A DNA stretch of 62,555 bases, filler included, from Collodictyon triciliatum (Eukaryota): assembly GCA_043381765.1 (NCBI GenBank). It is 5 parts of 5 records of this genome, joined end to end, with 100 filler letters (N's around TTAATTAATTAA, not from the genome) between each part and the next. Parts side by side here need not be neighbours in the genome. Positions count along the whole stretch, not along the records: positions 18,922 to 32,718 come from JBHJMP010000161.1; 4 more parts are not named here. The stretch is one strand, 5' to 3'. How positions within the stretch are numbered: position 1 is the stretch's first letter; every line of letters begins with the position of its first letter. The notes beneath the pieces are model-generated. The model had not been told where the DNA came from, did not search any database, and worked only from the letters and a program-made list of their open reading frames with translations. The translations under genes were made by a program, and so were the position numbers. Below, piece by piece: positions 1,109 through 49,948 of this stretch.

Positions 1109-3769
<2,661 letters not shown>

Positions 3770-4171
3770 CGCCTGAAATATATTATTTAATATTGTTTAT
3801 AAATAGCAAATAATGGGACGCACAAAATGATTGGAGTTGTTTGCAATAAATATGTTGCTTGATTCATATCCTACCCATTTTATGTGATTCGTGATTTTAA
3901 TCAAAAAAGTTGCTTATATATTTTTTACGGTGCCAGAAAAATAATATATTAAAAATGAAGTACCCAAAATCAGTCAGTGGTCTATTGGGGTCGTACCAGG
4001 GACAAAATGAAAGTGTGCTTCATAAATCATATTCAAACATTTGTCAGAGAAATTAAGCAAACGTGTTCAAATGATGGAACTATCATTCTTTTTGGGTAAC
4101 TCGGCTTATAAAATATGCTCTCTGTCACTTTTGTTAACTTTATTTTTCTGCTTTTTTTTTTAATGTATTTC

Positions 4172-6316
4172 TTATTTTTTGTTCGGCGGGTTTGACGAAC
4201 TGAACAGAGACATGGGAAGTACCGAGGGGGCCTCATTTTGTGCGATTGCTGTAGATGTAGAGTTAGATGCACTAGATGTACTTACTTGCGATGGAAAAGA
4301 CAGTGGATTTGACATACCCAAATGCTGAGTAGGGTTGGAGCCTGGTATATTTGTTCCTGGGCCACTGGGCTCCAATTTGAGTGCTGACTTCATCTGCAAA
4401 CCTTGTTCTAAAGCATTCAACTGGGTTTGCCTCGAAAGCAATCCCAGTGTCGGTGGTTGGCCTTGTTGTATCGCTGGTCTTGGAAAAGCGCTGGATTGTG
4501 GTGTGACACCAAAGGCCGGTCTGATATTTAGATTTGGTGGTGCATTGGATTGGATGATGGAAGGCATTTGCAAAGTTGGCTGGGATGAGGTTTGTAGAGT
4601 TTGTGTAAGACTGGATATACTCGGCTGACTTTGCCCAGTGGGCTGAGATGGCAGCAATGAAAGGTGCGTTTGAGCTGGTTGTTGGGCCGTGGGCAATTGT
4701 AATGATAACTGTGCTGGGGCTTGGGTCATGGAAAGCTGAGGTGGCTGCAGCGATAGTGGCTGCTGATTTGGTGGCGCCTGTTGCTGAGATGGCTTGTGGA
4801 TAAATGGCTGTGACGTGGGTTGCGTTGACTGTTGAATACCTGGTATGTTTTTTTGATTTGAACCGGGATTTAATCCAGGATTGGGGAGCCCTTGTAGACT
4901 AAGGCCAGAAGCAGGAAAGTTTCCTTGCTGGGGTGCACCCAATTGGTAATACAGGTCTAAAAGGAGAAATAAAGGTAAAAGGAGACGAAAGGGATGAATT
5001 GATTAGAGTGGAATAAATAATCCGTGCGGCTGGATTGTATGCAAAAATAAGATATTACAATCATATCGAATATCAACATTCGATTATGGTTTCTATTTCA
5101 TTTTTCTTTGGAGTTTAGAAACGTGCTCTTACCGTTCTGAGTGGCAGATTGTGAAGCAGGATTTCTCATTGCGCTTGGTGTGATGGTTTGGGTCTCTGTG
5201 GGTACAGGGATGACCTCACGCTCCCAGAATGAATAGAGCCTTTTAATCTCAACAAGTGGGATAGCAACTTTCTTTTTTGTAAGCGCTATTTGCTCCGATT
5301 CTATCTCTCTGCTCAAGGATGCTACCATTCGTGCAACGTTTGCATGGGCTTTCTATAACAAGAAGATGGGCAGAAAATCAGAAAGTCAGATTTTTGAGAA
5401 AAGGGAACAACAGAAAATTAGCTAAATCATAAAATTTTCTTTTATGCATCTACATCGAAAAAGTTGGAGGGGTTTTTTTTTAAAAAAAAAAAAATAAAAA
5501 GAAAAAAAAGAAAGAATAGAATAGCGATCTTGAGTGACCATATATGATGAAATGGTCTACGCTAAAAGTATTGATGTATCGCATTTTTATTGCATTAAAC
5601 TTTCTTTTTTTTTGAAAAAAGGCATTTTCAGGAACTAGTCTTACAATTTTAAAGCTCTTTGTTTTTTTAAAAGGGGAATGAAAATATAATAACCTCGTTT
5701 GCTGGATTTGCCTCAAAGGCATCGTTGCTATCTTCGTTATCGTTAGCATACTCATCTTCGTACTCTTCTTCATCTTCTGGCTCTTTTTTCTCCTTCAAAT
5801 TAGAAGACATAAGTTCCTTGTATTCTAGCTCGAGTTCAGGTAATAGTTTCGTGCGAAGTGCCTCTGTGTTCCACCAATCATAATGAAAAAATGGTAAGTT
5901 ATATATGACCGGCACATCATGCGTTTATAAAACTTTTTTTTAAAAAAAAAAGCAAGTAATGGCGCGGAAGTGAAATGGGTGCTTGTAGAATATAGCGAAT
6001 GAATTTGTGAGCGTGAATTAAATTGTATGCTTGTAAATATAATAATAAATACGAGAGATGTATATAAACATCGGAAAAAGGATTATTAGGTGCGTGCGAT
6101 AAATATACAAAAATAATTGTACCTTTGTTCCTAATTCCTTCATTTTTTTGGACACGAAGAAAGTATTGGCGTGCACCGCTGGACGGAATACTCTTGAATA
6201 AAGTATGGTAGAATCCCAAGATTTCATCGACGCGATTATATCGGGTGCGGTGTTTTCTATTATGATTTTAATGCAATATTAATTTCATTTTGGAGTTTTT
6301 AGGCGGTTTAGATACC

Positions 6317-12356: not shown

Positions 12357-17023
<4,667 letters not shown>

Positions 17024-18732
17024 GCTGCTTGGTTGCGACTTTGCTGTGTTGTTTGTTGTGAGTTGTTTGTCTTGTTTGTAGACCACACACGAAGAAGTTG
17101 CGGGAGCAGAGGCAATGGTCTCAGTGATATCTTGTGAGAGGTTTGAAGGTCGCATGCTTCGCCTTACTTTCAGAATAGGTATGTTTAGGTGTATTCTTGA
17201 GGGGGAAAAGCAGACAGGGGAACAGCAGAGCGATGGAGGGGCAAGGCGATAGAAGGAGAGTGGCTGGTATAGATTATTGCCGCTAGGCCTCTCTGTGCCA
17301 GTGAGCGAATATTCCCCATTCTGTAGGACCGGCTAAAGGTAGTTAGGGTTTGAAGAGCAGCGATATGAGGTGATTCTGTTTGCTACGGCATTGTGGTCAG
17401 ATGTCAAATGCAGTTAATAGCAATAGTCCTGTCGCATTCGGGCGCATAGCAGGAAAGGGTTATGTGTTGGCAGTTTAGTCAATGGTAAAGGTATTGTGGT
17501 GTGTTACAAACCTCCTGTAGAGGCAAAGAAAAGATATGGGAAAACAAAAAAAAAATATTTCCCTCTTTGTTCATAAAATATAAAATGTCTTTGCGGAATC
17601 CCTTCTAGTGGTAGATTAACAACCGCACGGGTTTACAACAAGGTATTGTCTTGCGTTTGGTTGGGCTTTATAACAATAGCAACTAATTATAATTTTTTCC
17701 ATGGTGAGCTAGAAACCCTGATGTTAATCGCAGGGTAGGGTGAAAAAGATTCTTGTCAAGCTGGTGGCGTGCAGTTTTGACACAGAATGAGAAGAAAACC
17801 AGACATATTGTACTATTTTTTTTATCTCGCCCTAAGCCCCAGGATTTCGGTGTGATACTGTGCTGCCTGCCACAGAGCAGCCATGCGCATTTGTGTTGTT
17901 GGACTGTGTTATATCTGCGAACCATTTGCCAGAAAGGTCGTCAGCATTGTGACGTTTCTTAAATACCCGTAGCGGGGTTCGTCTTGTTCATTGGTAGTTC
18001 TGTGGTCTTCGATGTCTCAATCCGGTTGGCGGACTAAGCGGGTGAAAATCAGAGCACTTGTCAATCGTAATCAGAGCAGTTCCTGTTGGCGTCTCGGAGG
18101 ACACCAGCTAATTTTCTTCAAGTACTAATTGTACACCTAAGCTCACTGGTGCTCCTTTGTAATATTTCTTGGCCTCATCTCTGCTCCCTTCTGCACGGCG
18201 TCATGTATTGCCTTCGACGTCCTGCTCACCCGACGCTGCTCCAACGCCCGTCTCCTGACAGGTTCGTGTGTCACTCGCCAAAAACATATTTCAACGCAGA
18301 TGTTACAAATATGGAATTTACAAAAAGTATTTATATACCCTTAAATAACGCGATTCATATGTATTTGAGCAAATTATACATTTAAAATATATTAAAAATA
18401 CATTATAATTGGCATTAAAGACAATTTCGACAAGGTATGAATAGTCTGCAAACACCACTATTCTCCGCAAACCCAGGCTTGTGGGATGACGCAGGAACTA
18501 TGACCGCTGCGTCATCTGCAGCTGTAATGAATAGGTGTTTGTCGCAGAAATAATTGCCCAGATTTGTGAAGAGTTTTCTACAATATATTTCTACGAATGT
18601 CCATAAAAATCGCGAGTGATTATGACGTCAGCATTTTGCATTTGGGTCTTTGTTGTTTTCTTCGTCGATTCGAAAAAAGGTTCATTTCCTCAGCCCAACT
18701 CCACTCTACCAAAGGCAGCTCGAAAAAAGTTA

Positions 18733-18821: not shown

Positions 18822-18921
18822 NNNNNNNNNNNNNNNNNNNNNNNNNNNNNNNNNNNNNNNNNNNNTTAATTAATTAANNNNNNNNNNNNNNNNNNNNNNN
18901 NNNNNNNNNNNNNNNNNNNNN
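18822..18921. other. Assembly gap with artificial TTAATTAATTAA linker (also at ~32763, ~40969, ~49893)
   Basis: The same 12-mer (stops in all six frames) is centred in ~100-nt N runs at four positions. Confidence 0.9.
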
Positions 18922-19386
18922 AATGCATTGTATTTAATTATTATTTAGCGAATGCATTGTATTTAATTATTATTTAGCGAATGCATTGTATTTAATTATT
19001 ATTTAGCGAATGCATTGTATTTAATTATTATTTAGCGAATGCATTGTATTTAATTATTATTTAGCGAATGCATTGTATTTAATTATTATTTAGCGAATGC
19101 ATTGTATTTAATTATTATTTAGCGAATGCATTGTATTTAATTATTATTTAGCGAATGCATTGTATTTAATTATTATTTAGCGAATGCGTTATATTTAATT
19201 ATTATTTAGCGAATGCATTGTATTTAATTATTATTTAGCGAATGCATTGTATTTAATTATTATTTAGCGAATGCATTGTATTTAATTATTATTTAGCGAA
19301 TGCATTTATTTAATTATTATTTAGCGAATGCATTGTATTTAATTACTATTTAGCAAATGCATTGTATTTAATTATTATTTAGCGAA
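18922..19386. repeat. Minisatellite, 29-bp unit AATGCATTGTATTTAATTATTATTTAGCG, ~16 tandem copies
   Basis: Head-to-tail near-identical units with no spacers, starting at a gap edge and degenerating distally. Confidence 0.95.
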
Positions 19387-19900
19387 TCCAGGTTTTTATT
19401 TACTGCATGACCTATCGAACTCATCTTTCCAATATAAATGCATGATATAAATCATGTTCATAAATGTCCGTGCCTATGCGTAAATCGAACTTTAATATAG
19501 ACTCGATTCTTGAGAAAATGGTTTATTATCGCCATATCGTTGCTGCATTTTCTGACAACGTGTAGATAGTACCGCATATAGATAAATTTATACCTAAATA
19601 ATGAAATGAAAGAATGACTCAATAATTCGATCCCTTAAGGACTATCACGGTCGTATGTGAAACTTCATTTATAGAGCCAACAGGGCACCAAATTAAAAAC
19701 TAAAAATAAAGTTTTTTTTTCTTTTCGGTCTCTTGATAAACATATAACTGAATGTTTACTCACTACGCCATATGAACATTTCTTTGGCTCACTCCTGAAT
19801 CGAGTTCATCTTACAATCGGGATACAGAAATTGAATGTTCTCTTTTTTATTTTTATATTCGATCTTTGGTGGTCCAATGAAATGGAGATCCAAACAGAAT

Positions 19901-22211
19901 TCAGGCAAGGTAGATGTAAATGTTGGGGTTGCTGCTGTCTCTTTCAAGAAATTCCCTCTCGATAAGTTTTTCGATGTGTTGCTTTACGGCCGGCACCTGA
20001 TTATAATGGAACGTTATTATTTTTTTTATTTTTTTTTAAAAAAGGCATCCTCTGATTCAGGTTATTTAATCTCATGGTGATTAATAGGCCATAAATATAA
20101 TCCGTAGAAGCTAACTGGTGGGTTAAATCTCGATTGGAGCTGCAAAATCACTTCTTGAACGAGGTCCACATGAGCAAGCTTCTTGCGAGATTTCATTACT
20201 CGAACAATCGCGGCCTGAAATTGCATATTTTTATGGAAAACTGGCTGAACAAAGCAAAAAAATGGCTTTACATGTTGATATAGCCAAGCTGAGAGCAAAA
20301 GGGCATAGCAAGAGAAGCTTGAATAAGTGCATCAGTTTATCTTTCCTTTTCTTTTTCTATACTTTCTTTTTCAATTCTTTAAGGAAATACAAGACTCACA
20401 GAGGGGAGGGGGTTAAAAAAAGAAAAAGAAAAAGAAAAAGAAAAAGAAAAAGAAAAAGAAAAAGAAAAAGAAAAAGAAAAAGAAAAAGAAAAAGAAAAAG
20501 AAAAGAAAAAGAAAAAAGGAAAAAGGAAAAAGGAAAAAGGAAAAAGGAAAAAGGAAAAAGGAAAAAGGAAAAAGGAAAAAGGAAAAAGGAAAAAGGAAGA
20601 AAGAAATCAGAAAAAAATACACATGCAGCTTCAAAGGAAACACTACCTCAATTTGGACCTTGCGGTCTTCTTCAACCATTTTTTTCACCTGTTGCGATTC
20701 CTCTGTGACTGCAGCCTTAACAATCCCAGTAATATTGATTTTGTGGCGTTTGCTATAAGGAATCAAGGCCGATGTTAAGCCCGGCAAAATAAATTAATAA
20801 CTTTTCTCATGAATTAAAGGTCATGTTCAAGTGTATGTACAAAAAATATATATTTTTATTAAGGATTACTTTGCATATCTTATATTTAAAGAAACATTTT
20901 TTCCGTTGCTTTCTCCCTCAGACTTGTTAATAAGTAAGATTTGAGAATCAACCAAGGACTATAAGTTGCTACAATCAGCAATTTAAATTTGAAATGGATG
21001 TGATACTTATGCATTCTATTTTTATTTTTATAGTTCCCCTCTTTGTTTGATTGAAATTATATGGGTTTTACAAATTTATCCATTTTTTTAAAAAAAGAAA
21101 GAGGATGCTGAATTTGATTTTGTCTAACATAAAATGACCTCTAAGACGCCTCGAAACACCGGTTCGCTCATGTTTGTTAATTCTTTGAGTCGATCCGATG
21201 GAATTAAAAGATCATTATTAAAATGGAGTAGAATAACCTAGAAAAGTCATCATGATGCTTTAACTTTCACATTCGTATAAAATTATCATGTAATCAAGTT
21301 GAAGGATTTTACAGAATGTCAATAACAGAAATTAAAAGGCTACTAATATTGTCTAAAGACTTTCTCACTAGAACCAATTACCATATGATAGGTAGAGACT
21401 ACAAATGTTTTTGGCTGTTTAAATATAAAATAATTAGAGCAGATTGTAAAGTCAAACACCAACGCATAGATACGCTCAAGGAGTAGTACTTGCATAATAC
21501 TTACTGTCGCAAAATATGATGCTTTAAGATCCACTTTTGAATACTGATGCAGCCAAGTTAATTTCCGTCCATTAAATCGAGAAGAGTAGAATGACTCGAA
21601 CGAGAAAATCATTTCACCAAGCTATTTTACATATGATGAATGAAATCAAATGAATCCGTTTGAAATAAAATCCAAAATTCTATGAATTTTCAATTTTTAC
21701 CTCCGAGGGAATGTGAACAGATGTTGATAGTGGTGAAACAGGCCAGCTATTTGAAGTCAAAACTTGAACGCCGAAATCAGCTACACATAATACCAATTTA
21801 CTGTGTCAGAACAAAGTATAAAGAAAACAGAGTCCTTAATGGAAACCAAATGCATGCAAGTATAGATACATTTGTGGACAATCCCTCTTTCATTTGCATA
21901 AGTCTCAAAATCAAGCTTTAGTGTTTGGTTTAGATCCATATCCGTGTACATCTTTTGAATTTTTGTAATGTACTCGATTCCGCACTCAATCTTCGATGTA
22001 AACAGAATATTTTAGTCAGGCCGCAATTATCAAATATGTATATATAGAGAGAGGCAGAGGCTAGAGAAATGCAACCCCTCAGACAAAACATACGAAACAA
22101 GGATATACACGAACGAGTATGATCTTGCTTTTAACTCAATTATACTATTTTATCCATTTTTCCTATATATGATACTAATAATGATACTAATAATGATACT
22201 AATAATGATAC

Positions 22212-24817: not shown

Positions 24818-25526
24818 TGTATGTATGTATGTATGTATGTATGTATGTATGTATGTATGTATGTATGTATGTATGTATGTATGTATACAGTTAATTATTT
24901 TCATTAATACCTCCAGAGTTTGTTTGAACTGACCCTCGGCCAATATCTCTATCCTTTCATAGATTGCTTGTCCTTTCATCGAAACTCCTTTTCCATTAGG
25001 TCCAAACATATCTGAGCTGAGAGTCTCATTCCCGAGAAAGGGAGAGGTCAGGTAGTCGTGCACAAGGCTATGTTAGAGTAAATAGAAACTCAAAAAACAA
25101 AAACAATCATCGACAGCCGAATAAGCAATGTAAAATAAGAGGGATATTGCCTTTCAACTCGTGCAAATAAAAGAAATGACTTGAATAATAGTATATGCAG
25201 CACCATTTTATATATAAAAAAAGAGCAAGCTTGTTGCTCATACGATGATAGTGATGATAATGGTAATGATAATAACTATTGGGCATTCGAACAATCGCAA
25301 ACTCATACAGAGCCATGTCATTTTGACTGACTTAATGTTTAGGTCATATATTATCATACGTATAGAGCTCAAGCCATCTTGTTCTTGGAAAGGCCTCTTT
25401 GGAGCTCGAGAGAATCTGAGGAATTTGTGGCAAGAGAAAAAGTCACGCTATTCATCGACTCAGATATAATTAAAGTTATGTCTGTTCATCGACTCGAGTT
25501 TAGTTGGCTTTTTTTGGTTCCTTTTT

Positions 25527-25617
<91 letters not shown>

Positions 25618-25758
25618 TAAATGCTTTGCATTTTGTTTGTCTAGATAAAACCGAGAGAGAAAAAAAAAGCGAGTCGGAAACAAGAGAGACAACACAAAGA
25701 CCTGGGTGATTCCTGGGGCAATCCTAGGCCAAGCTTCTTCGATGTGTATACGCTGCAT
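19901..25758 (-). CDS. Cullin (CUL1/CUL2-like SCF scaffold)
   Basis: Motifs LFDYLNRSW, INKERNGEQIDRSLI, YEQDFEKELLKGTKDYY, PAEMLVSYIDSRLRK, FNGRKLTWL, EEDRKVQIE|AAIVRVMKSRK (neddylation site) and IEKLIEREFLERD...YIYLA*. Part of the cullin core was not found and may lie in the 22313-22412 gap. Confidence 0.92.
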
Positions 25759-26180: not shown

Positions 26181-26231
26181 TAATAACCCGTATACCAGCG
26201 AGCCCAAGATATAATTGCTCAGTTTTCCTTC

Positions 26232-26284
<53 letters not shown>

Positions 26285-26335: not shown

Positions 26336-29085
26336 CTAATTTATTCTCATGTTGCTTCCAATATTCACTGCCCGCTCTGGGGGAGTGCCTATTTTCCATA
26401 TCTTTATGGTTCCGTCGCTGCTCACAGATGCAATACCTGTGGCATTTTGTATGTTGATGAGGCCATTCACACTGGCGGTGTGGTCTATGAAAGTATCCAC
26501 TAGCAGTCCGGAACCAAAATCCCAAAGTTTGACTGTCTTGTCGAGCCCTCCAGATATAATTGACTTCTGGTCAGTCGAGATGGATGCGGCCAGAACCTCG
26601 TCAGCGTGACTCACAAGGACCGAAATCGAAATTCCAGTGAGGGTGTTCCAGACACGAATTGACCTGTCACTGCTTGCAGAGACAATTTTGCTGCCATCAC
26701 TCGAAACAGATACGCTATTGACAGAGCCCTTATGCAGTTTCAAAATTTGAAGTAGACTACCATCAGCACGACTAGATATTCTGATACTATTATCAGTGCT
26801 GCCAGATATAATTTTTTTTTCCATCTGCCGTAATGGTTACACTCTTTATGATACCAGTGTGACCAGATAAACTCATTACCAGAGAACCATCTACAATGTT
26901 CCAAACCTTGACAACCATATCACCACCGCCTGAGATAATCTCTGTTCCATCTTCGTTGACAACTACGCTATTGACAGCTCCAGAGTGTGCTACAAGAGTT
27001 TGCATAAGCCTACCACTTGCTAAATTCCATATTTTTATTGTGGAATCAGAGCTTCCAGAAACAATTTTGCTTCCATCAGGGGTTACCGCCAGACTCAAAA
27101 CGGCTCCACGGTGACCCTCCATAGTGAGAATAAGGATACCAGTGGCAGAGTCAGATACTTTAATTGTACTATCAAATCCCCCAGAGACGAGATATTTGCC
27201 ATCCGGCGTAGATGTAATGCTAGACACCCCTCCCTTGTGGGTCAGAAACGTGCCAGCAAGATATCCATAGACTAAATTCCATATCTTTATTGTTTTATCA
27301 AAACTTCCCGATATGAACTGCAGGCTGTTTGGAATGAAAGAAATGGATGTTATTCGGCTGGTATGTGCCACTATATTTCGTAGCAACATTCCTGACGAAA
27401 AATCCCAAATTCTAATAAAAGCATTTTCCTTCCCTGACACAATTTTTGTTTCGTCTGGGGTCAAAGCAATACTATACACCGCACTGTACGTGAAGTCTTC
27501 TATAGCTCTTACTAAAGTACCATCAGCTACGTTCCATATCTTTATGGTACTGTCACTACTGCCGGTTACAAATTTGGACCCGTCCTTAACTACTACAATA
27601 TCATTGACAGTGTTTCGGTGGTCTGTGATTGTATACAAGATTGCACCATCAGATACATTCCAGACACGAACTCGTGAAATACCGCTACTTCCAGCAATTA
27701 TCTTTGTTCCATCGGGAGTAAAAGCCAGACAAAATACATAGCCAATTGTCAACGTGTGAATTAAGGCCCCATCAGATGCGTACCACAACTTTACTACCTG
27801 ATCTTCTCCGCCTGAAGCCACAATATTTCCATCTACAGATATTGCAACTGCTTTGATGGCAGATGTATGGCCTTTCATGGAGAGAACCAAGGAACCTGAT
27901 GATATGTCCCAGATTTTAACAACAGTCGCTGTTCCTCCGGAAATCAGTCGAGAGCCATCTGATGATTGAACAAGATCATTCATACCGTCAAGATAATTGC
28001 TAATTTGGTAATCATAAAGCATACTGGGCAAACCCCATCCTCTAATTCTTTGGTCTAAACCTGCTGAATAGACCATAGAAGCATCAGACGCTACCACAAC
28101 AGAGTATATATCACGAGTTGGGCTAACATCAGTACGAATTAATGTGCCACTGGGAAATTTCCATATTTTTATGGTAGCATCCATGCTTCCTGAAACTAGC
28201 ATCGATTCGTCTGGAGTGACAAAGACACTCATGACCACATGTTCGTGGCCGATAAGGGTTTTAATTAAGGTGCCATCATTGATATCCCAAATCCTCATGG
28301 TGTAGTCCCATCCGCCAGATATAGCGGTGAAACCATCAGGACTCACCACAACAGATTGGACGAAGTTGGAGTGACCTAGAAGAGTTGAAATCAGGCGTCC
28401 TTCGCGGAGTGCCCAGACTTTGACTGTATTGTCCCACCCTCCAGAGACTATTTTGGAGTTGTCTGGTGTAATTGAAATGCATGATACAATATTAGTGTGT
28501 CCAATCAACGTCCTCACCAGCATTCCGTCAGAAAGATTCCATATCTTGATGGTCATGTCTTCACTTGCAGAAGCAACCTGTAGGCCGTCAGAGGTCACGG
28601 CAACATCATTGACGTTGGCGGTGTGACCAGTGAGAATTTGACTTAGTCTTCCTGTTTGAAAATTCCACACGTTAACATCCCTTTCTGTACAAGAAATAAT
28701 GAACCTTTCATCTGGTGTTATTCCAAGACATGAGACCGATGTATTGATGAACCGGACTAATAAACCGTCAAATGTCCATATTCTGATAGAATTGTCCGCA
28801 CTACCACTGATGATTTTGGATTCGTCAGGGGTAAGAACCATAGAGTTGACCGCAGCTTGGTGGCCACGAATGGCCTGTACCAGGTTTCCATTGCCATATT
28901 CACGAATTTTCACAGTGTAATCAGCCCCAGCAGACACAATTCGAGATCTGTCAGAGGTAATCACAGCACGGTTGACAGCAGCGGAGTGCACGTCCAAGGA
29001 ATAGATAGGAGACTCACAACTCACGAAGGAAAACAGAGCGCAGAGGACCAGAAAAGCTGGGAATTTTCACAAGAGTTAAATGCAT
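26336..29085 (-). pseudogene. Intronless WD40-repeat protein (~21 repeats) with predicted signal peptide; two +1 frameshifts in A-tracts (pseudogene or assembly errors)
   Basis: ORFs 26793-29024 and 26336-26824 are continuous GH..V..V..SPDG..IVSGS.D.TIKIW repeats, joined by removing one A from the A9 run at 26812-26820. Removing one A at 29064-29067 links ATG 29085 to MHLTLVKFPAFLVLCALFSFVSCESP. Confidence 0.85.
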
Positions 29086-29879
29086 ATAGAGCCCGATTTT
29101 ATGTTGGAGGTTTAAAGGTCAAAATGAGCATATAGTTCAAAGTTGTAAAAACTTTACGCGCCACCGCCACGAATTGAGATACGTCTCGTTGCATTGGCAC
29201 AAGATACTCGGCTGTTTCGCAGAATATATTTTTTTTTTTTGGTGTGAGTAAATAAAATAGTATTACACGAATATTCTTTTTACAATATGTAACTATGTGC
29301 CCCTCTGATAAAGCTTTTTCGCTGTATTCGCATAATCTTATGGCACACTTTCGAAGGGATGAAACCACTAAAGATATAATACCAATGCCACACGAGAAAA
29401 TCAAGCTGCACAGAGTAGAGAGTCTAGAGAAAATGATTGGTGATAAACTATTGCATTAAGCAGTTGATACGACCAACCACCCCCATAACACTCCGGGCTC
29501 AAATCTTTGTGTAACTGATTTCGTTTTGGCTGTGACCCACAACAAAACCAGGCACAAATCCTTTTCATCCTCATTTCATCAACAGCAGCAACGCGCATCA
29601 GGTTTGACCACAAGTTGTCAGCGCGCTTGTGGTCATATATCCATCCTATAACGCTCATCAAACCTCTCGAATAGCACTGGGCGCTATTGAGCGATTTATA
29701 TTTTTTTGGAATATTCTTGAAATATTTCTTTAACCGTACATCAACTAAGAAAACGCTTATGTGACATTTTATTTGCAATATCGTTGATATTGCTTGCATC
29801 CTGAGTCACTTATCCAAAACAACCGTTGGATCCATTCCTCAAGTGGAATATATACAAATACAATGCAGATGGTTGAGTT

Positions 29880-30060
29880 AATTATAATGTAACACATTTT
29901 ATTTACTACTAGAAGAGGCATACCAATCTTTCAAATAGTAAACCTGGTGCGCTAGTATCCAAGGTCTCGCCACTTTTTTCACAAAGGTTGTGTAGTGGCG
30001 AAGACTGCCAGGAAAGACCCGACAGCTTGTTTTTTTAAAGAGAGGTGTATATTTTTTTCT
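29880..30060 (-). ncRNA. Candidate Fanzor omega-RNA scaffold
   Basis: Three adjacent stem-loops at or downstream of the Fanzor 3' end: 29964-30005, 29943-29964 and 29902-29942. The position matches omega-RNAs of TnpB/Fanzor loci. Confidence 0.5.
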
Positions 30061-31975
30061 TGAGGATTAAAAGACCCTTTCTTGAGTATATTATCAGCGC
30101 TGTTAAAGTCCCTTGTCAAGAATACACTTTGCTTGCTTTCTAAACGATTGCATTATTTACATATGAGACATCTATATACACCATTTTTTTTTTGAATTTC
30201 CTTTCGGTTTCATATATTCCAGTTCTTTTTTGCAGATACAGCACATATTGAGGTTTTAAATTCATCTACACTGTTTCAAAACGTTTGGATATTATTTTTC
30301 GTAATCCCCTTCCGATTGTTGCCATAAGATGTTTCATCGGGCATTTTCTGCTTCAGTCTTCATATGCCAGTACAACATCCTTGCCAAATGTCTTTTCGAT
30401 TCCGTCCATAAACAATTCTTTACTTCTTTTTGTATAAACATGCTGTCTCCATCTCATCTTTCGAAAAGTTCCTTGTTCATAAAAATGTGGAAAACTCTAT
30501 CTGGCATCTTGATTTCATAGGTACATATTTTCGAAATTGTTCATAATCGACCGTGCATGAATTATGTTTACACAGTTATGTCTCTAAATCGATTAAATAT
30601 GCTCTTAATGTATCAAACCGCTGATTCTCTTCAAAAGTCCTGTGACCATAAGAAACAGCACTTTGTAAACCTGTCGCCATGCATATCCCTGAAGCATTGT
30701 GCTTTTTTTCTTGCGCAAGAGTATTTTGTGATTTTTAAGAGATTTGCTATCATGTCTTGTTTGGTGTGCCGTGTAACGTAATTTCTTACCTGTCTCATCC
30801 GCCATATAAACCAAATCAAACTTGCCTGCATCAACTACAACATATTTTTTTTTGTCGCTAATAAAGATAACTGCTCTTCGGAAAGTTCATCTATATAAAC
30901 ATATTCTTGGATTTTATTTGATTAAATTTTTGAATTTTGAATTTGAAATACCTTTCTTTTCAAATAATAATTACACTGCCAAGCCGTGTGTTTGTACCAT
31001 GTATTTAAAATGTTAGTCTCTTCATTGAAAGACTCTCTTCTTCATTTCAAAGAAATCATCCCATAGGGTCTGTTTGCATCCTGGTATATTCTTCTTTAAT
31101 TATGTTTTTCCAGTTGATACTAATATATCTATCAAACATGCAGTATCTATATATATCTATCAAGCAGTATCTAGGTTAATATGAAGCAGTAAATTGCTAG
31201 TTCTTATAGGGATTGGTTGATGTAGTTTGGGCCCAATGTCCTCAAAAGTACGATTCATGTAAATCAAACATGGAATGTACTTATTCGAATTGACTTTGGG
31301 TTATATTTTATACCATTTATAATATTGCTGGGAATAATACGATTCATTTGCATTTAATCCATTCTTTGTATTGTTCCGGTATGTCGAGTTTCTTGAAGAT
31401 GGCTTTTTTTTTAAGTTTTGTAAATCTGCCTTTTTAATAGCTTCCGTAATATCCTCATCTTTAGGTACTGTTTGGTTTATAAAGCGCAGTAGCCTCTTTA
31501 CAAAATTTTCCTTAATGCTATTATGATGAGCTGTTAGCATTAGCTTCGCCAAGTACGGTAATACACGAGACAGTCTGGCCAACGGAACGCGTTCTTCTTG
31601 GGACAAAAGGAATCGAAAATCATTCAGATAAAAAGTCATCATGTCGATACTCATTTCTGGCTTTTTAAACTTGCAGGTCTATCTTGTGAAACTACTCCCA
31701 CTGTCTTTAAAGCGTACAAAAAAAAAACATTTCATCGGTTGCTGGGAGTGATTGTGATTTGAATATGTAACATATTGCAAACAGATAAGTGTTGGTAACC
31801 AAATTATGACACAATAAAACGGTGCCGTTGATTTTATAATAGTCATCCGCATTCTTTACAACCGACTTTAGAGATGTTTTCACATTTCGATAGTCTGGGT
31901 TTACAGACTTTAGATTCTAAGACTCAAGACGCCTTGTTTTCTTTATCTGAAAGTCTTTGTTTTACTTTTTGCCTG
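29980..31975 (-). pseudogene. Degenerate Fanzor1 (TnpB-derived RuvC RNA-guided nuclease)
   Basis: Fragments across frameshifts and stops: YRNVKTSLKSV; HHNSIKENFVKRLLRFINQ; LIYMN..PKLHQPIPIRT..HINLDTA; RuvC-I VVVDAGKFDLVYMADETGKKLRYT (D 30830-30832); KMRWRQHVYTKRS; RuvC-II VDEFKTS (E 30261-30263); CCIC...VYRCLICK*C zinc finger; RuvC-III RDFNSADNI (D 30108-30110). Confidence 0.88.
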
Positions 31976-32574
31976 TAGAAAACTACCGAGTTTTTAATTT
32001 TAATAAAACTTTAGTCAATTGGTTAATTTAATACAAACAAACAACTGCACAAAATCAATTTATGTAAAATTAAGCATCTACTGAGACTCTCAAAATGTGC
32101 GCATTGTGGCAAACAAACACAAAGTTTTTTTTACAGGTGATTCGAGACAAAACGCTGAGAACCGATTCGGCGAGTTCGAAAGGACAGCCCTTAGCCATTG
32201 CGGCTGAAAGTCAACATATCGGCTTCAAACAAAATGATTGCCGCAGCAAGTGTAGATAGAATGCTCTTTCGAAATGCATGTTTGGTGGCAGGTTTATAGG
32301 ATTGGCTCTGTCTGGGCTAATGCAACCGCTTATTTATAATCTTGAATTAATATTACATAAATGGTAAATAAAATATAAATTGATTACAGGAATAGAATAC
32401 GATTATTAAGTTTTTTTTTAATCTTTATTATATATACTAATCATACTAGAATATTATTCAGGTTCTTTCTAAGATTCACCGAAGCTCCTGCTTTCGTCAA
32501 TCCAGATTCAATTCGATGGTTGTCTGTGTAATAATCTGCTATATATGGGTACACTATCATTGTGTAAAAAGTGT

Positions 32575-33196
<622 letters not shown>

Positions 33197-40924: not shown

Positions 40925-41205
40925 NNNNNNNNNNNNNNNNNNNNNNNNNNNNNNNNNNNNNNNNNNNNTTAATTAATTAANNNNNNNNNNNNNNNNNNNN
41001 NNNNNNNNNNNNNNNNNNNNNNNNAGAGATAGAGATAGAGATAGAGATAGAGATAGAGATAGAGATAGAGATAGAGATAGAGATAGAGATAGAGATAGAG
41101 ATAGAGATAGAGATAGAGATAGAGATAGAGTGTATGTATGTGCATATGTTACTTGTAAGGCCACAGCTTCGCTCGGTACTTTTGGTAAATAAACATCTCA
41201 TTCTC

Positions 41206-49847: not shown

Positions 49848-49948
49848 GNNNNNNNNNNNNNNNNNNNNNNNNNNNNNNNNNNNNNNNNNNNNTTAATTAA
49901 TTAANNNNNNNNNNNNNNNNNNNNNNNNNNNNNNNNNNNNNNNNNNNN

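Follow-up and report, generated by a model that had tools for sequence, protein, structure and literature searches.

A decayed Fanzor1 gene in a genomic stretch of Collodictyon triciliatum and its relatives in giant viruses

The Fanzor1 relic and its catalytic residues

In a stretch of 62,555 nt from the Collodictyon triciliatum genome assembly GCA_043381765.1, hereafter called the window, we find the remains of a Fanzor1 gene. Fanzor1 proteins are transposon-borne, RNA-guided DNA cutters of eukaryotes and giant viruses; they are the eukaryotic counterpart of TnpB/Cas12 and are under development as compact genome editors. Judged by its sequence, the locus is a real Fanzor1 gene relic with similarity far beyond chance, and we are highly confident that positions 29979-31946 of the minus strand hold a non-functional, intronless Fanzor1 pseudogene, the decayed copy of a mobile element of about 2.2-2.7 kb which was formerly amplified in this genome or those of close relatives. 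The core of this reading, a dead Fanzor1 with the first aspartate, the relocated glutamate, the finger and the last aspartate, is supported by a family profile, by the alignment of the catalytic residues and by the predicted fold of the nearest intact relative. The window, with a G+C content of about 35%, many microsatellites and 14 runs of N, looks eukaryotic.

The three minus-strand frames from about 31946 to 29979 jointly encode all the motifs listed in an initial annotation of this DNA, in the same order and at the same codons, and the motifs are distributed across all three frames (Table 1). Most of the protein is held by the main frame (31678 to 30270), which has 15 in-frame stops and when read through gives 469 residues (P0001); the C-terminal part lies in another frame with two stops (read-through P0002). 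A hidden Markov model of the family, described below, matched the main frame at E 3.3e-90 and the second at 1.7e-23, with 0.84, not significant, for the third. The annotated size of roughly 600-650 aa agrees well with our alignment of the relic to residues 1-633 of a 648-aa protein, P0160. Two details have to be corrected: the RuvC-I Asp, described as near the start of the protein, is at about residue 364 of 648, and the first CxxC pair (CCIC) lies in the third frame and not in that of VDEFKTS.

Table 1. Features of the Fanzor1 relic in the window, along with related transposon copies
Feature	Position	Strand	Basis or remark
Whole Fanzor1 pseudogene	29979..31946	-	Former start codon (ATA, 31946-31944) to last-frame stop (29981-29979); terminal stop from the list of open reading frames (ORFs)
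Upstream sequence, still repeated family	31947..32300	-	Sibling contigs about 88-90% alike over 31980-32300, the limit of the stretch compared
VKTSLKSV	31883-31860	-	Motif search of frames
IKENFVKRLLRFIN	31516-31475	-	Motif search of frames
IYMN	31264-31253	-	Motif search of frames
KLHQPIPIRT	31228-31199	-	Motif search of frames
HINLDTA	31183-31163	-	Motif search of frames
24-nt tandem duplication in ORF	31124..31171	-	Adds 8 codons including TGA and TAG; copies 83% identical
RuvC-I VVVDAGK	30841-30821	-	Asp codon GAT 30832-30830 = SpuFz1 D383; family-invariant Pro replaced by Ala
LVYMAD	30814-30797	-	Motif search of frames
GKKLRYT	30790-30770	-	Motif search of frames
AYED-stop, canonical RuvC-II position	30353..30367	-	Glu (GAA) for family-invariant Gly of YGDWS; TGA at 30355 opposite W523 of P0160
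MKHLMATIGRGLRK	30337-30296	-	Motif search of frames
VDEFKTS with relocated RuvC-II Glu	30269-30249	-	Glu codon GAA 30263-30261 = SpuFz1 E541
Zinc-finger remnant, CCIC 30243-30232 and CLIC 30170-30159	30159..30243	-	Two frames; frameshifts and TAA between and after
RuvC-III RDFNSADNI	30113-30087	-	Asp codon GAC 30110-30108 = SpuFz1 D606
Short 3' tail after ORF, presumed right end of element	29938..29978	-	Sibling contigs cease matching there
Transposon copies of about 3.33 kb	L002:2193-5532, L004:2217-5533, L001, L005		Sharply bounded, apparently TA-flanked

When P0001 was compared by phmmer with 1.84 billion representative proteins, 786 matched at E<=1e-3, 260 at <=1e-10 and 10 at <=1e-30, the best being P0003 (634 aa, E 4.6e-59). 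The proteins matched across the breaks form a large family with lengths of about 620-650 aa. A word-based search of a larger collection returned a single protein, P0160, at E 1.5e-101. Among 177,635 distinct PDB sequences the raw read-through matched SpuFz1, the Fanzor1 of Spizellomyces punctatus, and no other (E 9.2e-4), and the C-terminal piece of 96 residues taken alone gave eight matches to PDB, all at E>=0.3 and none meaningful. The family profile was built from an alignment of 40 full-length relatives (A1, in P0003 numbering). It found PpFz1 at 7.3e-102, SpuFz1 at 2.1e-98 and GtFz1 at 2.2e-78 in PDB; the next match was LaTranC at 9.3e-4, followed by Cas12m, Cas12g and a TnpB-like transposase at 0.026-0.07, and no Fanzor2 chain was found at E<=1. 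Over the full length the similarity to characterised Fanzor1 proteins exceeds that to TnpB, Fanzor2 and Cas12.

The invariant columns of A1 are D372, P373, G496, E530, S534, D581 and N587. The profile residues D372, E530 and D581 align to 777, 935 and 1000 of 8gkh_P, an MBP-fusion chain, and after subtraction of the offset of 394 (verified on N385) these are D383, E541 and D606 of SpuFz1, the metal-coordinating residues (Saito et al. 2023, PMC10432273; cited here from excerpts, as are PMC10530073 and PMC10711439). The acidic triad of the relic thus falls on the RuvC triad, as the initial annotation had supposed. The RuvC-I Asp column is invariant in 40 of 40 relatives in A1 and in 63 of 63 in A5, a 63-sequence alignment, and the Asp codon of the window falls in that column. 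The Pro that follows is likewise invariant in both sets, hence the change from DPG to DAG pointed out earlier is real. The Asp of RDFNSADNI aligns to the invariant D581/D604 column.

The excerpt of Jiang et al. 2023 (PMC10530073) reports that in Fanzors the canonical RuvC-II Glu is replaced by Gly or Pro, and that an alternative Glu some 45 residues further downstream is used. The invariant G496 in YGDWS along with the invariant E530 in DExxTS agrees with this rule of a relocated Glu, and SpuFz1, with MGDWS, has Gly at the canonical position as well. The window reads GAA (Glu) at this site, one base from GGA (Gly), and we infer that this Glu is a pseudogene mutation of the Gly. The remnant of the CxxC...CxxC finger sits between the alternative Glu and RuvC-III, with its two pairs in different frames.

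A comparison of predicted structures was made on P0160. The AlphaFold2 model, based on A5, has a pLDDT of 85 and a pTM of 0.82. It aligned with SpuFz over the full length, with template-modelling scores of 0.74-0.75 by query (TMq) and 0.78-0.79 by target (TMt), E about 1e-27, and 18-21% identity in the structural alignment; TMq was 0.67-0.68 against PpFz and 0.64 against GtFz. Against Cas12o, Cas12X, Cas12f, TnpB and Fanzor2 it did not exceed 0.33, at E>=1e-7. The model predicts that the bilobed Fanzor1 fold with REC, WED, RuvC and NUC is present in P0160, which is the nearest intact relative and not the relic itself. The solved Fanzor1 structures, SpuFz1 (PDB 8GKH, 9CEU-9CEZ), PpFz1 (9CF0) and GtFz1 (9CER), have the same order of segments from the N-terminal REC/WED to RuvC-III, and their catalytic D/E/D columns coincide with those of the relic's family. 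The copy in the window differs from them in being a pseudogene.

TnpB (ISDra2) and Cas12f share with this family a RuvC nuclease domain with an inserted zinc finger and, probably, guidance by an RNA that stems from the gene's 3' end. The fold match to the P0160 model has a probability of about 1, but TMq is just 0.20-0.24, and in the excerpt of PMC10530073 these proteins are smaller, prokaryotic and equipped with the canonical RuvC-II Glu, unlike Fanzor1. Fanzor2 (ApmFz2, PDB 9B0L) is described there as a eukaryotic or viral descendant of TnpB with a relocated Glu as in Fanzor1, yet its fold gives a TMq of 0.21. We consider it next to impossible that the similarity reflects one of these other TnpB-like nucleases (Fanzor2, a prokaryotic TnpB or a Cas12 relative) or chance. 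The weak profile matches of LaTranC, Cas12m and Cas12g (E 9e-4 to 0.07) concern the zinc-finger region and could be cited for such an origin along with the PF07282 matches in some relatives, but the E-values of the Fanzor1 structures are lower than those of all other PDB sequences by some 75 or more orders of magnitude, and Fanzor2 is missed by the profile and far behind SpuFz in fold.

Damage to the copy

Lesions were counted from our own frameshift-aware dynamic-programming alignment of the window with P0160 and P0003. Against P0160, residues 1-633 of 648 are covered from 31946 to 30018, with 630 aligned residues, 369 of them identical (58.6%), 10 stops and 15 frameshifts. Against P0003, residues 12-588 are covered from 31916 to 30087, with 567 aligned residues, of which 235 are identical, 10 stops and 12 frameshifts. 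The start codon is replaced by ATA, and the tandem duplication of 24 nt appears as an insert of eight codons that holds two of the ten stops. The stops are five TAA, two TAG and three TGA, and those outside the duplication stand opposite E, Y, Q, Y, S, S, W and E of P0160. The frameshift sites of the P0003 alignment fall in homopolymers of 7-10 bases in 5 of 12 cases and in runs of at least five bases in 8 of 12.

Near the active site two family-invariant residues are altered, the Pro of DPG and the Gly of YGDWS, and the Trp which follows the Gly and Asp of YGDWS is replaced by TGA. All three catalytic D/E/D codons are still encoded. It should be noted that nothing about function follows from this, as damage this heavy elsewhere makes their survival unremarkable.

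The copy in the window is dead; no such protein can be made from the locus. We regard it as very improbable that the gene is alive and that its stops and frameshifts are introns, a non-standard code or assembly errors. Such a gene would fit the frequent introns of Fanzor genes (excerpt of PMC10530073), the five frameshift sites in long homopolymers and a scaffold with 14 runs of N. The alignment to P0160 is however collinear and has no long insert, hence the breaks are not introns, and the stops stand opposite conserved sense residues. The lost start codon and the duplication with its two stops also speak against a living gene, and a gapless short-read contig, which may share the assembly's sample, spans 31359-31507 including one frameshift site with one difference. 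An alternative genetic code was rejected, as all three stop codons are used opposite varied residues and no single reassignment rescues the frame; the neighbouring WD40 frame of 757 aa is open under the standard code. The stops look like ordinary nonsense mutations and not like a variant code.

The initial annotation took the copy to be dead, with its three catalytic residues kept, and suggested that it may be a recent relic. The profile, the alignment to SpuFz1 and the 10 stops and 15 frameshifts bear out the first part of this. The age does not hold: about 25 disabling lesions together with a divergence of about 40% of residues from the nearest intact protein indicate an old copy.

Sibling copies, subfamily and giant-virus relatives

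To find siblings of the pseudogene we turned to sequencing runs. Five freshwater or lake DNA runs contain 5-9% of the words of the stretch, and no RNA run was among the listed runs that share words with it. Four of the five (X1-X4) were compared with 29700-32300 at a likeness of at least 80%. They gave 7, 124, 7 and 78 matching contigs, which were short and mostly 80-95% alike, with up to 8-10 distinct contigs over a single position. In the likeness classes of 99 and above, 95-99, 90-95 and below 90%, X2 had 4, 10, 41 and 69 contigs and X4 had 1, 7, 22 and 48. The cover spans about 29938 to 32300, the limit of the compared stretch, and is zero in 29700-29873. Loose contig ends at 29925-29940 run into differing flanks in X1, X3 and X4. 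This cover along with the differing flanks places the stretch in a repeated family that ends, on its 3' side, some 40-55 nt past the ORF; the 5' end of the element is beyond 32300. A telomere-like C4A4 loose end in X1 was dismissed, being a low-complexity match of 37 nt with six mismatches.

Among the matches listed there are sibling contigs without the window's extra or missing base at about 30059, 30077, 30179 and 30249, with CAA at the TGA of the window (31024-31022, Gln in P0160) and with GAA at its TAA (30578). As siblings are intact at these six sites, those lesions are private to the copy in the window.

Two protein fragments in the databases are nearer to the relic than any intact protein: P0022 (79.2% identity over 96 aligned residues) and P0012 (72.2% over 133). 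P0022, in our reading, itself reads across a frame change near a T10 run. P0160 follows with 59.6% over 617 residues, then P0004 with 56.7% over 261, P0020 with 55.2% over 201 and P0003 with 42.4% over 559. P0160 is a protein from a metagenome contig of 2,610 nt, open over 648 aa, with the full D/E/D triad and both CxxC pairs, and its next relatives are just 46% identical to it. The earlier suggestion that intact copies of the family exist elsewhere in this genome hence stands in part: P0160 is an intact relative, 58.6-59.6% identical to the relic, but it is not demonstrably from this genome.

A quick IQ-TREE run on 56 rows, among them 26 of 73 usable viral ORFs and 20 metagenome proteins, with the root on six distant rows, joined the relic, P0160, P0004 and P0020 in one clade with an SH-aLRT support of 100 and a stem of 0.99. 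This clade stands inside a group with giant-virus rows; the nesting branches have SH-aLRT values of 82-86 and the root 48. The relic belongs to a distinct subfamily (P0160, P0004, P0012, P0020 and P0022) of the PF26935 Fanzor1 clade, named members of which are mostly found in giant-virus contigs.

A scan of metagenome contigs with P0001 gave no relative, and neither did a scan of IMG/VR with P0160 alone. With an alignment of relatives (A3) the metagenome scan gave 27 loci, none nearer than about 33% to the raw read-through. We analysed these 27 loci along with the best 80 of 429 relatives from IMG/VR, and found open genes of about 600-650 aa at these loci. Two of the loci, L002 and L004, are on contigs of 173 kb and 254 kb, the former being the same as L030 in IMG/VR, with an mRNA capping enzyme, a ribonucleotide reductase small chain, an SNF2 helicase and DUF5755 as neighbours. 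Viruses make up 92-100% of the Atlas clusters nearest to P0003, with Nucleocytoviricota commonest.

L002 and L001 share 95.8% identity across exactly 2193-5526 and are unrelated on either side. Within this unit, about 3.33 kb long, a divergent HTH_28+DDE_3 transposase and a Fanzor1 gene of 634 aa lie between inverted ends of about 30 nt, and a unit of 2.2 kb with the Fanzor gene alone was seen in L003 and L010/L011. A DDE_3 relative stands beside 11 of the 27 metagenome loci and 25 of the 80 viral loci. It is already published that Fanzor1 is associated with Mariner/Tc1 elements and that giant viruses carry Fanzors (excerpts of PMC10530073 and PMC10711439), and 3655 Fanzor members are reported in the excerpt of PMC10530073.

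Past the stop, intact relatives have some 50 nt up to the end of the right inverted repeat; these 50 nt and roughly the final 100 nt of the ORF are conserved as DNA, even behind the stop codon. The consensus of this 3' RNA, from an alignment (A4) of L004:5384-5533 and its equivalents in nine other loci, has 26 pairs, 11 of them with compensatory changes; the RNA overlaps the end of the Fanzor ORF and extends to the right inverted repeat. The covariance model built on it (R1) matched 43 of the 80 viral loci (E<=1e-3), in each case immediately behind the Fanzor match; three of these loci repeat, exactly or almost so, elements on which the model was trained. This 3' RNA is likely to be the omega-RNA of the clade, as the cases of SpuFz1 and GtFz1 suggest (excerpt of PMC10432273). 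The ancestral protein of the relic, if it behaved as its homologues, would have bound an omega-RNA that arose by transcription of the element's 3' end, and would have cut DNA at a single RuvC site formed by the RuvC-I Asp, the Glu relocated before the zinc finger and the RuvC-III Asp.

The PF26935 proteins of giant viruses annotated as transposases (L002/L030, L004, L010/L031) are of the relic's family by sequence, have 600-660 aa and, like the relic, an ORF that ends near the end of the element. They differ from it in having inverted ends, a 3' RNA and often DDE_3, none of which is detectable at the relic, and a long branch separates them from its subfamily. SpuFz1 stands in a single-ORF unit of 2.1 kb with inverted repeats of 30 nt (excerpt of PMC10432273); at the relic no inverted repeats were found.

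Several results weigh against the reading of the locus as a decayed Fanzor1 element that once multiplied here. At the 3' end of the relic R1 reached 2.0 bits (E 6.2), so nothing was found. A remnant of the DDE_3 transposase was not found in the window by tblastn of the relatives' transposase (best E 0.25), and no significant terminal inverted repeats were found around the relic, AT-rich or borderline matches only; the best pair, 29970-29994 with 32549-32573, has a score of 28, where 200 shuffles reached at most 27. No second copy of the relic was found inside the window, only microsatellites. The evidence for copy number in this organism consists of metagenome contigs, some of which could belong to related species, and some of the frameshifts could in principle be assembly errors, which the ten nonsense codons and the duplication cannot be. 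Pfam gave only sub-threshold, unrelated families for nine stop-to-stop fragments of the relic, and a local Pfam scan of ten intact relatives listed PF07282 above the curated cut-off in one, below it in four and nothing in five. PF26935 (DUF8286) was not listed in that scan; it is given by the precomputed annotation of the relatives, P0160 included. It follows that the mobile-element context of the relic is drawn from its relatives and not seen in the window.

Further results concern the same region. The best R1 match in the window, 24 nt of the most conserved core of the model at 32005-32028 of the plus strand (11.2 bits, E 0.08), is on the opposite strand to the relic and just upstream of its former start, and is probably due to chance. 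Rfam gave nothing at gathering scores and one chance-level match (RF02970, 19.7 bits against a cut-off of 224.5). The 3' 251 nt of the relic fold better than shuffles (z -2.73), which is no proof of a structured RNA. A six-frame Pfam scan of the upstream 770 nt or so (31950-32718) gave no family.

As to the origin of the element, we would tentatively propose, as a possibility rather less probable than its opposite, that an undescribed Fanzor1 subfamily (clade support 100, stem 0.99 substitutions/site, nearest others 46-47%) colonised the genome of a freshwater eukaryote, probably a protist, from a giant-virus pool of Tc1/mariner-type Fanzor1 transposons, and that intact, possibly active members remain. 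The relic might instead be a piece of an endogenised giant-virus genome, in which case the Fanzor gene came with viral DNA and decayed in place; this we find unlikely. The viral affinity of the nearest named relatives and of the Atlas clusters nearest to P0003, the 429 relatives in IMG/VR, the viral neighbours of L002 and L004 on their long contigs (capping enzyme, ribonucleotide reductase small chain, DUF5755) and the branching of the subfamily within a clade containing viral rows would all suit it. Against it, the nesting support is only 82-86 and the root weak, the subfamily stem is long, and no IMG/VR contig is nearer than 47% to P0160. Many divergent siblings per single metagenome are what is expected of a multiplied element, and the ten window ORFs scanned gave WD40, formate-tetrahydrofolate ligase (FTHFS) or nothing, with no viral hallmark gene among them.

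Neighbouring features and significance of the relic

An uninterrupted ORF with WD40 repeats, 757 aa, lies at 26793-29066 of the minus strand, about 900 nt downstream of the relic and on the same strand. It has many matches to WD40 and beta-propeller families of Pfam (PF00400 at 415 bits). An ORF at 26336-26836 along with a family of 126-nt repeats (D13, first copies at 26382 and 26508) suggest that the WD40 gene extends below 26793. A gene for FTHFS appears to be split into exons on the minus strand at 12928-13503 (87 bits) and, more weakly matched, at 16715-17332 (15 bits), about 3 kb apart and in an order that fits a minus-strand gene. Three EukProt transcriptome proteins of 633-647 aa (55-59% identity) stand nearest to the strong exon, ahead of bacterial FTHFS, which reaches at most 51%; by sequence this points to a monofunctional enzyme, not the trifunctional type of animals and fungi. 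The same ranking is a weak sign that the host is a protist, and host DNA is present at low depth in the lake metagenomes.

A tandem 29-nt unit of at least 15 copies, the central ones 99-100% identical, occupies 18864-19450 and adjoins the N runs at 18822-18921. The N blocks at 18822-18921, 32719-32818, 40925-41024 and 49849-49948 each consist of 44 N, 12 bases and 44 N and are in or beside low-complexity repeats; the remaining N runs are exactly 100 long, apart from one of 322. This layout looks like a masking or gap convention and not like biology. Poly-T tracts of about 100 bases (25509-25620) and about 50 bases (26220-26280) pair with an (AAGAAA)n tract at 20410-20600 as long imperfect inverted repeats.

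The relic adds a member to the already known Fanzor1 family and is not itself a candidate nuclease. As it cannot work, the copy in the window offers no editing tool, and its value is that of a marker. Annotators should mask the locus as a pseudogene of transposon origin. It has also led to the intact 648-aa P0160 and to a well-defined family of viral transposons. For the host, the relic records a past invasion of its genome by a Fanzor1 element whose closest named relatives are in giant viruses. If the element did come from a giant-virus pool as we tentatively propose, the locus would be a datable record of transposons passing between virus and host, and would point to a new compact nuclease.

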